NCBI GenBank assembly: GCA_963718565.1
Contig: OY970364.1
Location: 768,001 to 832,000 of the forward strand
DNA: 64,000 bases
From: an uncultured Verrucomicrobiae bacterium
GTDB taxonomy: Bacteria; Chlamydiota; Chlamydiia; Chlamydiales; Rhabdochlamydiaceae
Reading direction: 5' to 3'
A program made the translations under genes and the position numbers. Position 1 is the first letter of the stretch, and each line of letters starts with the position of its first letter. A model generated the notes under the pieces. It saw nothing but the letters and a program-made list of their open reading frames with translations, ran no database searches and was not told the DNA's origin. Below, one piece after another: positions 52,025 through 63,851 of the stretch.

Positions 52025-52403
52025 AGGAACAAGCCTTGATAGATCGATTGTATCTTGATTCATGCATTATGATAGCCCACTTTTCGTCTTCAGAAAAAGA
52101 GGCTGAAAAAAAAGAGCTGGTCAAAACCTGTCTTACAATTTTTTCAAACCTAGCAGATTTTCAATTATGCACCTCACACTGGACTCTCACCGAAACTGTC
52201 AATGTCTTGATATCAAACCATAAAATGAGCGAAGGCGAGGTAGCACAAATCGAATCAGATTTCACTAATAAAAAACGTCTCGGCCCTCTAAAAATTGAAA
52301 TTTTAGGCATGTCCCAAGACAAAACCTATGACTTCCAGGAATTCTGTTATGATGTACGATTAAAAATCCTCGCTCACCATTCAGGGGCTTGTAACAGAAT
52401 CCC

Positions 52404-52432
52404 TTGAACTTATTCAAACCTGATTATATATT
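52404..52432 (+). promoter_or_regulatory. Sigma70-type promoter of tnpA, probably leaderless
   Basis: TTGAAC-N17-TATATT, ATG 7 nt downstream, no RBS; same in copy 2. Confidence 0.55.
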
Positions 52433-52438
52433 ATCAGA

Positions 52439-59724: not shown

Positions 59725-61183
59725 AGAGAATCTGGTTCTTAAGCTGAGAATTGAAGCAGACCCTCAAACAATTTCTGAGCTCGATGGGCAATCGCGGATC
59801 TGTAATTGGCTTTATAATCATCTGCTAGAAAAAAGCCTGGAACTCAAGCGGGAATTTATCCATTCCGGCAACCCGGAGGCATCAAAGACCCTCTATACAG
59901 AAAGAGGACTCAGAAATGAACTTCCAAAACTCAAGGAAGAGCACCCCTTTCTAAAAGTCGTCCACTCTTCTCCATTAAAAAATACCGCTTTGAGACTTAG
60001 TGAAGCAATCCGGGTTCATCAAAAATCAAAAAAAGGAAAACGGAAAGGCAAACAGATGGGTTGGCCCAAATTTCGGGCCTGGAAACGGGACTGGTTTTCT
60101 CTTTTTTACGATGAACCAGAAAAAGGTTTCAAGATTCACGGCAAAGCCTTGTTCCTCTCCCTTGGAATGGGCCAGGACCGCAAGCGCCGCTTCCTCACTC
60201 TCGAATTACCCGAAGCACATCTCCTCAAAGACAAAACCCCACGCAACTTGCGCATTATCTCCGAACTGGGAACCTACTATGCCATTTTTACCATTCAGAA
60301 AGAACTCCCCATCCGAAAACCCATTTCTAAAATCCTCGCACTCGATCCCAATCACAAAAATCTCGCCTATGGTGTTGACACAAGTGGAACAGCCATTGAG
60401 ATTGCATCTCCTCACTGGCTCAAAACTTACGATAAACGCCTGGACGAACTAAAAAGTAAAAGAGACCGCTGTGATAAAAAATCTAAAAAATTCCATGTTC
60501 TGGATGAAAAAGGCAATCCCACAAGAAAAGAATTCCATCTTCCTTCCAGGCAATGGAGAAAATACGATCATGCCCTAAAAAGCGCACTGCGTAAACGCCG
60601 AGAACAGACCAAGACGTTTATGTTTACAAGCGCACATCGCCTTTTCCAAAATTACGACTGCATTGGAATCGGAGACTATACACCAAATGGCGAAGGCATT
60701 ACTAAACCAATGCGGCGAGCGATGAATAATCGATCCTTGATTGGACGTTGGAAAAACACCCTCTCCTGGGTAGCTCGAAAATCGGGAAAAACCTTTATTG
60801 AATTCGACGAGAAAGGGACAACCCGGACCTGTAGCCACTGCCTGCGGATTGAAGAGCGGGGAATCCCTGTCTCATTGAGACAATGGCAATGTCCACAGTG
60901 CAAGACCGTTCACATTCGCGACGAGAATGCCGCAATTAACGGCTTGAGAAAGATCTTGCGAGATCTTTCAGCAAAAAATGAAGGAGGATATCCTTCAATA
61001 GTGTCTGGCTCAGACCTCGCTTTTATCCAAAAGCGATGGGCCTGGTGTGTTTTGCCTAATGGTGTACATGTGACACCGTGGGGGCAAGACAGCAAAGCAA
61101 TTTGCAGCACCAGGAAATTAAACCGAGGGCATGATAGCCCTCGATCAAAAGTTGATAATTTGGTTATATATGATCAGGTTTGA
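59717..61183 (+). CDS. tnpB: TnpB with rearranged RuvC, copy 2
   Basis: Three amino-acid differences from copy 1 (Y/H, S/G, R/Q). Confidence 0.93.
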   Translation: MSKENLVLKLRIEADPQTISELDGQSRICNWLYNHLLEKSLELKREFIHSGNPEASKTLYTERGLRNELPKLKEEHPFLKVVHSSPLKNTALRLSEAIRVHQKSKKGKRKGKQMGWPKFRAWKRDWFSLFYDEPEKGFKIHGKALFLSLGMGQDRKRRFLTLELPEAHLLKDKTPRNLRIISELGTYYAIFTIQKELPIRKPISKILALDPNHKNLAYGVDTSGTAIEIASPHWLKTYDKRLDELKSKRDRCDKKSKKFHVLDEKGNPTRKEFHLPSRQWRKYDHALKSALRKRREQTKTFMFTSAHRLFQNYDCIGIGDYTPNGEGITKPMRRAMNNRSLIGRWKNTLSWVARKSGKTFIEFDEKGTTRTCSHCLRIEERGIPVSLRQWQCPQCKTVHIRDENAAINGLRKILRDLSAKNEGGYPSIVSGSDLAFIQKRWAWCVLPNGVHVTPWGQDSKAICSTRKLNRGHDSPRSKVDNLVIYDQV

Positions 61184-63851
61184 TCAAGTTTTGAAGAGCG
61201 GTGCAAGTGCCGGGGAAGGATATGTCGGAACCGATGCTAAATTGCCCCACATTATTGCTCATGGTTGAATCACTTGTTGAATTGAATGTGCCACCAGATT
61301 TGGTGAATGTATATGCACTGGTACCACTGCTAGGAGTGGCCGTGTTGTTGGTAAAATCTAGGCACAACGAACCTCCTGAAACTGTAATAGTTGTCGCAAA
61401 TCCACTGGGCAGGCCCGTGTCTCCACCAAAAGTGTCATCAGATATCACTACTGAGGCATTACTGGCCGACAAGTTGTATTGGATACCGTGGCTGGAGTTG
61501 TTAATACCGCTGAAAGTGTCACTAGACGAAGTGAAGGTGGTGTTTGATACGGCGTTGATGATGGCACTGCTACTGCTATTAATAGTGCTAAAGGTGTTCC
61601 TGGACGAATTGAAAGTAATGATTGAGGCCTCGTTGTAGATGCCAACGCTACTGTTGTTAATCTGATTGAAAATGCTACGAGACATAGTGAGGGTAGTGAT
61701 GGAGCCTGCGCCGTTAGAGATGCCGATGCTACTGTCTAAACTGTCAAAAATGTCACCAGACAAAGTGAGGGTAGTGATGGAGCCTGTGTTGAAGATGGCG
61801 GAGCTGTTAGTCAAATTGCTGAAAGTATTACCGGATAAAGTGAAGGTGGTGATTGGGCTGCCGGTGTAGATGACGGAGGCACCGGTTACATTGCTGAAAG
61901 TGTTACCGGACAAGGTGAGGGTGGTGATTGAGGTCCCGTTGACGATGCCGTTGGTAGCGGTTAAATTGCTGAAAGTGTTATCGGATAAAGTGAAGGTGGT
62001 GATTGGGCTGCCGGTGTAGATGCCTTCCCCGCCACCGGATAAAGTGCTAAAAGTGTTCCCGGACAAGGTGAAGGTGGTGATTGAGCCATTGGTATAGATG
62101 CTGCTGCCACCAGTTAAATTGCTGAAAGTGTTATCGGATACAGTGAAGGTGGTGATAGGGTCGCCGGTGTAGATGCCGACGCTACCATTGGTTAAATTGT
62201 TGAAAGTGTTATCGGATACAGTGAAGGTGGTGATAGGGTCGCCAGTGCCGATACCGTAGCCACTGCTTAAATCGCTGAAAGTATTCCCGGACGAAATGAG
62301 GCTAGTGATTGAGCCATTGGTAAAAATCCCATTGCCTCCAATACCCCCGCTCGGGTCGCTGATATTGCTGAAGTTACTTGCTGTGACATTCAGAGTGTTT
62401 AGGGTGCCGCCGTCAATATAGATGCCGTTGCCATTGTTACTCATATCGGTACAAGTAAAGCCACTAAAGGAACTGTTATTGATGAGAAGATTACCGGATG
62501 AGTTGGCAAGATCAATGCCATTTGTCGCGATGGTAGTGGGGGAGGTAAAAGTGCTGCTATCGACAGTGAGATTGGTGATGCCATTGCCATAAAGGCCGTT
62601 CGAGCTGTCTATGGCCGTCGTGATATATAGCCCTGATATGGTATTATTGTTGGCTAATGTGACAATATTGCCGGATTCATTGGTGAGCATGGGCAGACTA
62701 GAAGCTGTAGGGGCAATGGTGATCTGGCCTAAAGTTGTGGGGATTGTAAGAGCTACGGACGCTCCGCACAATATTTGGTTGTCCTGCAGAGCAATACCAT
62801 CCGACAGGCCATTTGTGGTGCCATCTCCGGGGAATATATAAATGGCTTGGTTTTTCGACGAGGCGTTTTGAGCACCTAAGAGGGTGGCAAATGGATTTTC
62901 AAAAGTGCCGGCCGAGTGGCTTGTGTTGTCAACAAACCAAAACACCCAAGGTTGACCGGTTGCTGGATTGATTGCAGGTGTGATGACGTGCCTCTTGCTT
63001 ACGGGAATAATCTCTGCGCGGTCAATCGATTGTACGGCGCGCGCATAGAGGGTCATTTTCTCGCACTGCTTCTTCTTGTTTCTTCCGCCAAAAGAGACGT
63101 TGACGCTGATCTGCCCTTGCCCTGTCCATTTAAAGAAGTGGTCGTAGCTGACACTCGCTTCTAATCGCAAGTAACGTTTGAAGAGATCGACCCTCCCACG
63201 GAACTCACCACCCCACGTCGTTTTCATCCTCCCCGTTAAATAGTAGGGCCCCCCCGCAAAATAGAGCGGGGCTGTTTTGAAATGATCGACGTGGGCGCCC
63301 ACCTCTGCATTCACTCCCCCAAGAGCAAACTCTTGGGAGTATTTGAGGAGCACGTAGTTCTTTTTGAATTCATAAAATTCGGCGTGATAAGGGCGGCTCA
63401 CCTTTTTACCAACGGGTAAGTAGCCATTCACTCGATAATCCCATACAGAACCCAAACTTTCGAATCCTATGGCGGCCTGATTGTAATGGAAATGCGAGGT
63501 ATTCCGATAATCGTAGTAGGTATTAACACCCCAAACACGCGCATCTGTGAGAAGGCGCACTCCTAAACCTGCATTGGCAGCGAACCTACCGTTGTCAAAC
63601 ACATGCCCGCGCACATCTAAGAAAGGGAGCCAACATCCATTGAACGGTGTTGGCCTTGCGAAAAACCCTTCCAATGTCGTGTAACCTTGTTTGTAACCGA
63701 TCCCCTTTGGACTCGTATAACGAGCGCCAACACGCATGGACTGCAAAGGTTTGCACGACGTCTCATTAATCTTTGATTCCGTTGCAAAAAGATTCAATGC
63801 ACACAAACTACTCACGAGGAGGGAACGTTTCAACATAGGAGCACACCTCAA
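61164..63851 (-). CDS. Inverse-autotransporter beta-barrel protein with beta-helix passenger
   Basis: Signal peptide; PFLDVRGH, ANAGLGVR, YYDYR, RVNGYLP; FVDN...GTFENPF; 24-26-aa ITTFTLSxNTFSNL repeats. Confidence 0.85.
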   Translation of the reverse strand: MRCAPMLKRSLLVSSLCALNLFATESKINETSCKPLQSMRVGARYTSPKGIGYKQGYTTLEGFFARPTPFNGCWLPFLDVRGHVFDNGRFAANAGLGVRLLTDARVWGVNTYYDYRNTSHFHYNQAAIGFESLGSVWDYRVNGYLPVGKKVSRPYHAEFYEFKKNYVLLKYSQEFALGGVNAEVGAHVDHFKTAPLYFAGGPYYLTGRMKTTWGGEFRGRVDLFKRYLRLEASVSYDHFFKWTGQGQISVNVSFGGRNKKKQCEKMTLYARAVQSIDRAEIIPVSKRHVITPAINPATGQPWVFWFVDNTSHSAGTFENPFATLLGAQNASSKNQAIYIFPGDGTTNGLSDGIALQDNQILCGASVALTIPTTLGQITIAPTASSLPMLTNESGNIVTLANNNTISGLYITTAIDSSNGLYGNGITNLTVDSSTFTSPTTIATNGIDLANSSGNLLINNSSFSGFTCTDMSNNGNGIYIDGGTLNTLNVTASNFSNISDPSGGIGGNGIFTNGSITSLISSGNTFSDLSSGYGIGTGDPITTFTVSDNTFNNLTNGSVGIYTGDPITTFTVSDNTFSNLTGGSSIYTNGSITTFTLSGNTFSTLSGGGEGIYTGSPITTFTLSDNTFSNLTATNGIVNGTSITTLTLSGNTFSNVTGASVIYTGSPITTFTLSGNTFSNLTNSSAIFNTGSITTLTLSGDIFDSLDSSIGISNGAGSITTLTMSRSIFNQINNSSVGIYNEASIITFNSSRNTFSTINSSSSAIINAVSNTTFTSSSDTFSGINNSSHGIQYNLSASNASVVISDDTFGGDTGLPSGFATTITVSGGSLCLDFTNNTATPSSGTSAYTFTKSGGTFNSTSDSTMSNNVGQFSIGSDISFPGTCTALQNLIKPDHI
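61690..62320 (-). repeat. Coding tandem repeats of 72-78 bp (beta-helix coils)
   Basis: For example an identical 43-mer at 62123 and 62201. Confidence 0.85.

Follow-up and report, generated by a model that had tools for sequence, protein, structure and literature searches.

IS607-family insertion sequences with GGGG target sites, an intact tnpB and a predicted right-end guide RNA in a Rhabdochlamydiaceae genome

Among the closest described systems is the CboIStron, an IS607 element of Clostridium botulinum (10.1101/2023.11.20.567912), for which the target of TnpA and the TAM of TnpB are reported to be the same sequence, TGGG, and the right end of the element to read TCGG, position -3 being the discriminating base. 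For ISXfa1 of Xylella fastidiosa the TAM is described as GGG and not CGG, and the guide RNA as a 144-nt scaffold with a 17-nt guide (10.1101/2023.08.09.552727). Yoon et al. suggest that TnpB retains only those insertions which adjoin a TAM, as opposed to the recombinase making its own choice. For other TnpB clades in which the RuvC-II glutamate is shifted, the accounts drawn on here give modelling only in support of activity. The locus described below was found in a window of 64,000 nucleotides (contig OY970364.1, positions 768,001 to 832,000) from an uncultured bacterium of the Rhabdochlamydiaceae; the genome is referred to as G000, and all features are on the plus strand unless stated otherwise.

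Element copies and rebuilt empty sites

Copy 1 (52386..54338) and copy 2 (59249..61201) aligned without gaps over 1,953 bp with 7 mismatches, the identity beginning at the G run and ending after GAGCGG(T). This size takes in the GG of either end; what moves is a unit of 1,951 bp together with the shared GG. Copy 1 was also recovered as a 100% self-match. Given that the genome contains seven intact copies of 1,953 bp, all of them encoding a TnpB of 488 aa and a TnpA of 140 aa, as well as one interrupted copy and several deleted ones, the repeat of this unit is not due to chance. The tnpB gene lies 3' of tnpA on the same strand and imperfect subterminal repeats are present at both ends. The left repeat (52407..52436), located by a repeat search, is 30 nt long and 83% complementary to its inverted partner at 54298-54327; it is presumed to be a TnpA binding region. 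All 14 left ends in this genome begin with GG and all 14 right ends finish with GG, and beyond this core there is no further target duplication. The right ends read GAGCGG in 14 of 14 cases here and in 25 of 25 in other genomes. As TnpA is a serine recombinase with an N-terminal MerR-type HTH, the elements show the features of IS607, and judged by sequence the two repeats represent a single IS607-family insertion sequence in which tnpA is followed by tnpB. Two copies, at genome positions 1967132 and 1986379 of G000, are inverted, 17 kb apart and could have recombined. A tRNA scan found no tRNA genes between copy 1 and copy 2.

The preliminary description had proposed that removal of 1,951 bp restores both empty sites exactly, with GG at both junctions, and this was confirmed for each copy. 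Copy 1 interrupts a gene whose N-terminal part lies at 52021..52386 and whose C-terminal part lies at 54338..54487. Removing 1,951 bp, with one GG kept, brought the upstream ORF (frame 1) into frame with the downstream part, reading S-G-V-G-D as had been predicted; removing 1,953 bp did not restore the frame. For the upstream fragment there are five full-length homologues (165-166 aa; homologue set P0122-P0127), and all of them read (S/A/P)GVGD at the join, with ...HHSGVGD... running straight through it, and the two fragments abut on these homologues with no residue missing or extra. The downstream part aligned with their last 49 residues and is 98% identical to P0122, which is 94% identical to the upstream fragment and has a precomputed Pfam PIN domain. 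The fragment alone scored 14.8 bits against Pfam PIN (E 0.045), which is below threshold, and therefore the naming of the interrupted gene as a PIN gene stands on its homologues and not on its own Pfam score. A search of relatives for natural empty sites found none: in 30 relatives no DNA matched the flanks of copy 1, and in 60 relatives no protein matched the PIN fragment. Comparison of the fragments with PDB sequences gave no relevant match. PIN loci from JGI metagenomes were considered as an empty-site comparison and rejected, being only 49-65% identical with another codon choice at the site.

At copy 2, a minus-strand ORF (61164..63851) has had its native last residues replaced by 11 codons from the right end of the element. 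The rebuilt end, read from the sequence, is G-T-C-T-P-stop, as was originally stated, and this fits the ends of two paralogues in this genome and of two relatives, which finish G-S-C followed by one or two residues and the stop; the paralogues thus stop one or two residues past the same cysteine as the rebuilt end does. The label 'autotransporter' given to this gene needs qualifying, the match to the inverse-autotransporter beta-domain PF11924 (IAT_beta) being weak (35.6 bits, residues 87-149). Two further genomic copies separate long ORFs which are joined only by removal of 1,951 bp (104+74 and 96+156 codons). The ORF pieces beside the copies at 189 kb and 679 kb of G000 had no Pfam match. 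On excision the right flank would come to adjoin GGGG, which the rebuilt empty sites retain.

Target motif and candidate omegaRNA

The motif initially read from the two copies, T(C/A)AGGGG|T, was over-fitted. Only its G run is kept across 14 left ends here and 22 elsewhere. GGGG is present at the left junction of copy 1 (52384..52387), where it consists of two target G and the crossover GG and forms the predicted TAM of the rebuilt site, and at that of copy 2 (59247..59250), as seen in the sequence and on comparison of the left ends. GG preceded the crossover GG at 13 of 14 left ends in this genome, the exception having AG before GGCTTG, and at 20 of 22 in other genomes. The genome-wide probability of GG before GG is 0.048, giving a binomial P of 1e-16 for at least 13 of 14. 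The flanking bases, counted by eye from the aligned ends, vary: before the G run they are t5/a5/g2/c2, and the first right-flank base is t5/g4/a3/c2. The same variability was found at 22 left and 24 right flanks in other genomes. The comparison with other genomic copies that the preliminary description had proposed as a check bore out a G-rich motif adjoining the left end and showed a variable first base on the right. Only GG+GG is conserved, with NGGG as the minimum, since one copy of this genome has AGGG and one relative has TGGG. With the right end invariably GAGCGG, (G)GGG is predicted as the TAM, as against GCGG inside the element. The discrimination of self from non-self that this implies is as published for the CboIStron (TGGG against TCGG) and ISXfa1 (GGG against CGG). 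In this predicted register the discriminating base would be position -3, G in the target (GGGG) and C at the element end (GCGG), which had at first been missed. The G-rich target rule followed here is already published for the IS607 family.

An omegaRNA overlapping the 3' end of tnpB had been predicted, and a structured, covarying region was found there, ending at the element end. The candidate scaffold of copy 1 (54145..54338) was defined by covariation and folding, with an uncertain 5' limit; that of copy 2 lies at 61008-61201. The candidate RNA is about 194 nt long and has 176 nt in common with the 3' end of tnpB. Upstream of it, as far as about 54084, there are more hairpins with covariation. 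RNAalifold on 23 sequences gave 57 pairs, 36 of them with compensatory changes. Paired cells made up 94.5%; shuffling lowered this to 83.9% and the slid controls gave 40-50%, and none of 500 shuffles matched the observed values. The single-sequence fold had an MFE of -86.3 kcal/mol (z -7.9). In all of 25 relatives the end of the structured region coincides exactly with that of the element. The 3' architecture of the scaffold is unsettled because a terminal long-range GAGC:GCUC pairing, which never varies, competes with a covarying local hairpin. An Rfam scan of 52000-61600 on both strands at E up to 1 gave no match, including to RAGATH-18. In the only RNA run found, a metatranscriptome (word share 0.08), there were seven contigs of a relative 90-95% identical and with an undeleted tnpA; they span only the equivalent of 52384 to about 54030, stopping before the right end. 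We infer that RNA is produced from the scaffold.

Because the candidate RNA reaches to the very end of the element, its guides are predicted to be read from the flanks, as the preliminary description had supposed. The predicted guide-matching flanks are 54339..54354 for copy 1 and 61202..61217 for copy 2, each occurring once in the genome, and a guide length of about 16-17 nt is expected by analogy with ISXfa1 (10.1101/2023.08.09.552727). A solo right end at 888343-888560 of G000 was considered as a source of a self-targeting guide and rejected: its flank occurs 14 times, and the other sites follow CTAG or GGAG, not GGGG.

The encoded TnpA and TnpB

The tnpA genes of copy 1 (52439..52861) and copy 2 (59302-59724) are remnants. 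An in-frame deletion of 198 bp in both, which escaped the preliminary description, has removed 66 aa, leaving 140 aa of the 206 aa of the full protein. Pfam matched MerR and, for the serine-recombinase domain, only the beginning of Resolvase (profile positions 2-58 of 145), and the score against NF033518 (IS607 transposase) was 109.5 bits for a cut-off of 110. The full 206-aa TnpA at 1529877-1530767 of G000 scored 217 bits over profile positions 2-187 of 187, again with Pfam MerR and Resolvase. Given that NF033518 is covered over positions 2-114 of 187 only, the 140-aa forms are deletion derivatives. Owing to the deletion copies 1 and 2 cannot make a full transposase and are probably non-autonomous. 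The 206-aa TnpA is still encoded at two loci in the genome, and copies 1 and 2 probably depend on these for mobilisation in trans. On the doubtful reading considered below, the 140-aa remnant with its HTH might serve as a regulator that binds the element ends.

In contrast to tnpA, tnpB is intact (52854..54320 in copy 1; 59717-61183 in copy 2). It starts at 52854, with the tnpA stop at 52861, and its own stop at 54320 leaves only 18 bp to the end of the element at 54338, as first noted. The 488-aa protein matched NF040570 (guided_TnpB) with 137 bits for a cut-off of 100, and also PF07282. Across 13 sequences, the most divergent of them 58% identical, D210, E365, D402 and the cysteine pairs C372/C375 and C392/C395 do not vary. 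The place of the canonical RuvC-II glutamate is taken by glycine (G319); the shifted glutamate, overlooked initially, is E365, six residues before the zinc finger (C372). The RuvC-I motif D-P-N is invariant in the 13 sequences and is not the D-P-G of pro-Fanzors. The structural model was of moderate confidence (pLDDT 72.8, pTM 0.50, with the tail 441-488 below 50), and Foldseek matched it to ISDra2 TnpB (8h1j, E 1e-16), the IS607 TnpB of ISFba1 (8iaz, E 2e-13) and mimivirus Fanzor2 (9b0l, E 1.4e-11), a TnpB/Cas12f fold. TnpB is intact in all seven clean copies, among whose tnpB genes there are six synonymous and seven non-synonymous substitutions, too few for showing selection. No relatives of TnpB were found in viral contigs. 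Cleavage by this TnpB would depend on the shifted E365.

Proposed mechanism, alternatives and known systems

The best explanation as a whole is, with high confidence, an IS607 element with TnpB, GGGG sites, a right-end guide RNA and recognition of the vacated site. Element anatomy, target motif, exactness of the empty sites, RNA covariation, and the family, fold and catalytic residues of TnpB are established here, and the proposed steps build upon them. The insertion sequence would have entered GGGG sites by recombination at the GG core, and its excision would remove 1,951 bp, joining GGGG to the right flank. The right end would encode the structured scaffold of the guide RNA, about 194 nt long or longer and ending at GAGCGG, with a guide of about 16-17 nt added by read-through into the right flank. 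The vacated site, in which the TAM (G)GGG adjoins the flank, would be the only one recognised by TnpB carrying this RNA; the occupied site, where GCGG is in the TAM position, would be spared. Cutting of the vacated site would then lead to the element being copied back by repair from a sister chromosome.

The left junction alone is ambiguous, the run of four G being common to all copies, and the extra GG might belong to a 1,955-bp unit starting GGGG and inserted at GG only, so that the run would be uninformative on target or TAM. This is very improbable: the PIN homologues need the S-G-V codons at the join, which means four G in the empty site, only removal of 1,951 bp joins the long ORFs at the three gene-interrupting copies, and, since one copy here has AGGG and one relative has TGGG, the base at -4 is target-derived. 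Spread of the copies by segmental duplication or recombination, with flanks that are not true insertion sites, could be imagined from the inverted pair at 1967132 and 1986379 (G000), 17 kb apart, which could have recombined; it is more improbable still, given that, G run apart, the 14 left flanks all differ, as do the 14 right flanks, that identity stops exactly at the element ends and that genes are split precisely at the junctions.

The GGGG bias could also be a preference of TnpA only, with TnpB inactive or in another role, for example repressor-like, and the 3' RNA serving mRNA stability or termination. CboTnpA alone is reported to select TGGG, the canonical RuvC-II glutamate is here replaced by glycine, and at this locus both scaffold transcription and TnpB cleavage are predictions from sequence. 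However, invariance of D210, E365, D402 and both cysteine pairs across the 13 sequences, the spacing of E365, which Fanzor and pro-Fanzor enzymes share and which recurs in the alignment with mimivirus Fanzor2, the intact TnpB of all seven clean copies and a structured region that in all of 25 relatives ends precisely with the element make this explanation unlikely. A joint reading, in which IS607 functions are divided, the deleted copies are moved in trans and the GGGG bias comes mainly from TnpB keeping TAM-adjacent insertions, is somewhat less improbable than a preference of TnpA only, but doubtful. The element without a complete tnpA but with tnpB and predicted guide RNA occupies at least 10 loci in the genome, and the full tnpA is found only in two crippled copies, one of which is a mini-element with both ends and without tnpB. 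If true, this division of labour would be natural evidence for insertion profiles shaped by a nuclease, with a Fanzor-like (shifted-Glu) TnpB.

Returning to the favoured explanation, the case is sound but ordinary and opens no new question by itself. The published IS607 rule (target and TAM ending GGG, an element end differing at -3, a guide from the right flank) probably extends to a Chlamydiae-associated clade with a rearranged, Fanzor-like TnpB active site. It is accompanied by a clean natural data set of 14 left ends here and 22 elsewhere, in which one empty site has been confirmed through protein comparison, by a well-supported structure of the predicted guide RNA that is absent from Rfam, and by specific predictions of TAM and guide for the enzyme of 488 aa.

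Compared with the CboIStron as reported, both have a serine-recombinase TnpA with TnpB, a GG crossover and a target/TAM ending GGG; the right end departs from this only at -3, reading TCGG in the CboIStron and GCGG here. TnpB is reported there, and predicted here, to take its guide from the right flank and to target the donor joint. Unlike in the CboIStron, no group I intron was detected here (no Rfam match); here -4 is G and not T, the 488-aa TnpB has a shifted RuvC-II glutamate and tnpA is internally deleted in copies 1 and 2. ISXfa1, as described, is likewise an IS607 element with right end CGG and most genomic copies in GGG sites, its guide RNA overlapping the tnpB end and running about 17 nt into the flank; its TnpB has the typical active-site arrangement, unlike the one here, and its scaffold of 144 nt seems shorter than the 194 nt or more found here. 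The RAGATH-18-guided enzymes such as ISFba1 (Cell Res 2024, PMC11061315) are also IS607 TnpBs with a G-rich TAM by the left end, and ISFba1 TnpB has a similar fold (8iaz, E 2e-13); they differ in their reported TAMs (AGGAG or GAGGG), their length of about 390 aa and their RAGATH-18 RNA, which had no match here. Fanzor2, pro-Fanzor and RuvC-II-rearranged TnpBs, as reported, share the glycine at the canonical RuvC-II position and the invariant glutamate six residues before the zinc-finger cysteine, and mimivirus L79 (9b0l) has the motif E-x-x-T-T-(K/R)-T-C-S-x-C in common with the present protein, for which the profile scores of Fanzor2 (46 bits) and ISDra2 TnpB (44 bits) are about equal. Compared with the pro-Fanzors described, RuvC-I is D-P-N rather than D-P-G, in a bacterial element with a predicted right-end guide RNA.

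The two copies and their target sequence

The source genome, G000, is one contig of 2.28 Mb, of which the window is G000:C1:768001-832000. Two direct copies of an IS607-family element, copy 1 at 52386-54338 and copy 2 at 59249-61201, both on the plus strand, proved to be near-identical. The 1,953-bp unit aligned without gaps and with 7 differing positions, and identity extended from within the GGGG run at the left to GAGCGG at the right, after which one extra T is common to both copies. Each copy consists of a 53-bp left end, a tnpA remnant of 140 aa (52439-52861 and 59302-59724) whose MerR-type HTH is followed by no more than the first 57 positions of the resolvase profile, tnpB, and an 18-bp tail. 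In copy 1, tnpB (52854-54320, 488 aa) overlaps the 140-aa ORF by 8 nt and its stop ends at 54320, 18 bp before the element end as originally noted. An imperfect inverted repeat of 30 nt is present at both ends (52407-52436 and 54298-54327).

Between the copies lie a RhuM-family gene at 56796-57965 on the minus strand (PF13310, 374 bits) and a gene for a DUF3298 protein at 58291-58998 on the plus strand. As direct repeats, the two copies might in principle mobilise or remove the 4.9 kb between them. Short stretches at 54714-54781 and 55259-55400 showed 76-99% DNA identity in several relatives, with the surrounding flanks unconserved; a tRNA scan between the copies found no tRNA genes there. Just left of copy 2, at 59000-59240, are two similar terminator-like units, a GC-rich hairpin then a T run, each with the same short motif in front.

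G000 contains 7 clean 1,953-bp copies, each with the 488-aa TnpB and the 140-aa TnpA and with 20 variable sites among them, and further copies of which several are internally deleted or truncated; 11 copies have both ends. In another copy the part for the RNA scaffold is split by an IS630-like element of 1.1 kb (351-aa ORF, DDE_3 plus HTH_33) at 3423-4538 of L008, another stretch of the genome (G000 191126-192241). Fourteen left and 14 right element ends were readable in G000. All 14 right ends read GAGCGG, while the left flank ends in GG before the GGCTTG of the element in 13 of the 14 and in AG in the other. In the genome as a whole, 4.8% of GG dinucleotides directly follow another GG, giving a binomial P of ~1e-16 for this count. 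Among 77 loci in other genomes, mostly Chlamydiae MAGs with other phyla also represented, GAGCGG was found in 25/25 readable right ends and GG at the end of 20 of the 22 left flanks. The two exceptions were TG, and CG followed by GGG so that the GGGG run is still there, one base along. Thus the expected GG at both junctions and the G-rich motif at the left end were borne out. The longer motif first proposed, T(C/A)AGGGG/T, was not. In G000 the base before the G run was T in five, A in five, G in two and C in two ends, and the first right-flank base was T in five, G in four, A in three and C in two (both counted by eye). Since these flank bases vary both in G000 and in the other genomes, the T(C/A)A and the final T are a coincidence and only (G)GGG is kept. 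Judged from the junctions, the element demonstrably inserts with a GG core into (G)GGG sites.

Reconstruction of the empty sites

The GGGG at the left end can be divided in two ways. It may comprise two target G and the crossover GG, giving an excision of 1,951 bp, or it may belong wholly to the element, giving 1,953 bp. For the PIN gene split by copy 1, five full-length homologues were available (165-166 aa, with 41-94% identity to the ORF upstream of the element), and two of these carry a precomputed PIN domain. The two PIN fragments of the window abut on these homologues with no gap and no overlap, and all five have (S/A/P)GVGD at the join. At copy 2, the inverse-autotransporter-like ORF on the minus strand (PF11924 match weak) at present extends into the element by 11 codons. 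With 1,951 bp removed its stop falls two residues past a Cys, and two paralogues and two relatives end 1 or 2 residues past the aligned Cys; with 1,953 bp removed the ORF would continue for 87 codons across terminator-like sequence. At G000 189204 and 679227 long frames (104+74 and 96+156 codons) are joined by the 1,951-bp removal only, and the split ORFs had no Pfam family match. The other copies, which are intergenic or sit at the ends of genes, give no information on excision length. The four junctions decide for a predicted excision unit of 1,951 bp and contradict a GGGG owned by the element. The observation of two IS607 copies with exactly rebuilt empty sites is confirmed at the level of sequence, and the core of the first interpretation stands, with its target motif reduced to (G)GGG. 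It had missed the defect in tnpA.

Deletion in tnpA

A full tnpA has 198 more in-frame bases and encodes 206 aa. In G000 it was found only at 47850-49045 and 1529877-1530767, both on the minus strand. The 206-aa protein matched the whole of NCBIfam NF033518, 'IS607 family transposase', with 217 bits (cut-off 110), and the 140-aa protein of the window matched positions 2-114 of 187 with 109.5 bits. At the first full-length locus tnpB is truncated; the second is a mini-element with both ends but without element positions 488-1747 (tnpB). The same 198-bp in-frame deletion was present in 10/10 other G000 loci spanning the site, and the deleted form is the one that multiplied in G000. Undeleted tnpA occurs in the relatives G001, G013 and G018 (match gap ~200 bp) and in contigs of run X1, a metatranscriptome. 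Because of the deletion the window copies are most likely non-autonomous, and they would be mobile only with TnpA from the two full-length loci. Run X1 is from a rhizosphere; its contigs of an element relative are 90-95% identical over 52384-54030 of the window and stop short of the right end, and the left flank of this relative likewise runs into the G run.

TnpB, the candidate guide RNA and published systems

The 220 nt leading up to the right end were taken from the window and from 22 further genomes and aligned. On this alignment RNAalifold gave 57 pairs, with compensatory changes in 36. On this structure 94.5% of cells were paired against 83.9% in column shuffles (0/500 reached the observed value), and pairing fell to 40-50% when partners were slid by 1-3 columns. 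The window sequence alone folded to the same shape (-86.3 kcal/mol, z -7.9). The predicted structure occupies 54145-54338; it thus takes in the final 176 nt of tnpB and ends at the boundary, in keeping with the suggestion that the omegaRNA would overlap the tnpB 3' end. Two more covarying hairpins, placed partly by eye, may extend it 5' to ~54084. The covariation demonstrates a conserved, predicted RNA structure ending at the element boundary. No Rfam family matched the element (window 52000-61600, E up to 1). At 54145-54148 an invariant GCUC offers a possible partner for the terminal GAGC. These four bases also make up the loop of a covarying local hairpin (UA in 12 sequences, CG in 11), and the two foldings may be alternatives.

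The right end also occurs alone, as a 218-bp stretch at G000 888343-888560 that contains the whole RNA scaffold and adjoins a palindromic repeat of ~110 bp. G000 has at least 12 copies of this repeat, one of them near window 5930-6000 (G000 773960). A self-targeting guide from this solo end was considered, with 14 genomic occurrences, and rejected as the sites have CTAG or GGAG in front of them instead of GGGG.

TnpB scored 137 bits against NF040570, guided_TnpB (cut-off 100). Its structural model (pLDDT 72.8) matched ISDra2 TnpB (E 1e-16), the ISFba1 IS607 TnpB (2e-13) and mimivirus Fanzor2 (1.4e-11). Residues 441-488 were modelled with very low confidence, which fits a tail whose sequence may be dictated by the RNA. 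Thirteen aligned TnpB sequences, the most divergent at 58% identity, share D210 (within D-P-N), D402 and the Cys pairs without exception. At the canonical RuvC-II position all have Gly (G319), and all carry a Glu (E365) six residues ahead of the first Cys of the zinc finger. By these residues the catalytic set is shown to be complete though rearranged. Most close relatives of this TnpB are from Chlamydiae MAGs.

By analogy with the published systems, we propose that transcription would run through the right end into the flank, supplying a guide of ~16-17 nt; 13 of the 14 flanks occur only once in G000. TnpB would then cleave a vacated site, GGGG plus flank, and spare the occupied site, GCGG plus flank, and repair after cleavage would restore the element.

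The available text of PMC10691335 describes Gly for Glu as marking a large rearranged TnpB clade, and Chlamydiae as TnpB-poor. A 'C-terminally shifted glutamate' is described, in the source text available, as a feature of Fanzors and pro-Fanzor TnpBs, and the window TnpB has it in common with them; however, its RuvC-I motif is DPN where Fanzors have DPG. For CboIStron, the accessible part of the report (10.1101/2023.11.20.567912) states that TnpA integrates at TGGG with GG strict, that the TnpB TAM is TGGG, and that the element end is TCGG, position -3 parting self from non-self. For ISXfa1, the corresponding part (10.1101/2023.08.09.552727) gives GGG, not CGG, as TAM, with CGG flanking the guide region, most copies in GGG, and an RNA of a 144-nt scaffold and a 17-nt guide. 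Other IS607 TnpBs use AGGAG or GAGGG in the available text of PMC11061315. The logic of CboIStron and ISXfa1 is also found in the window element, with its GGGG target and GCGG element end.
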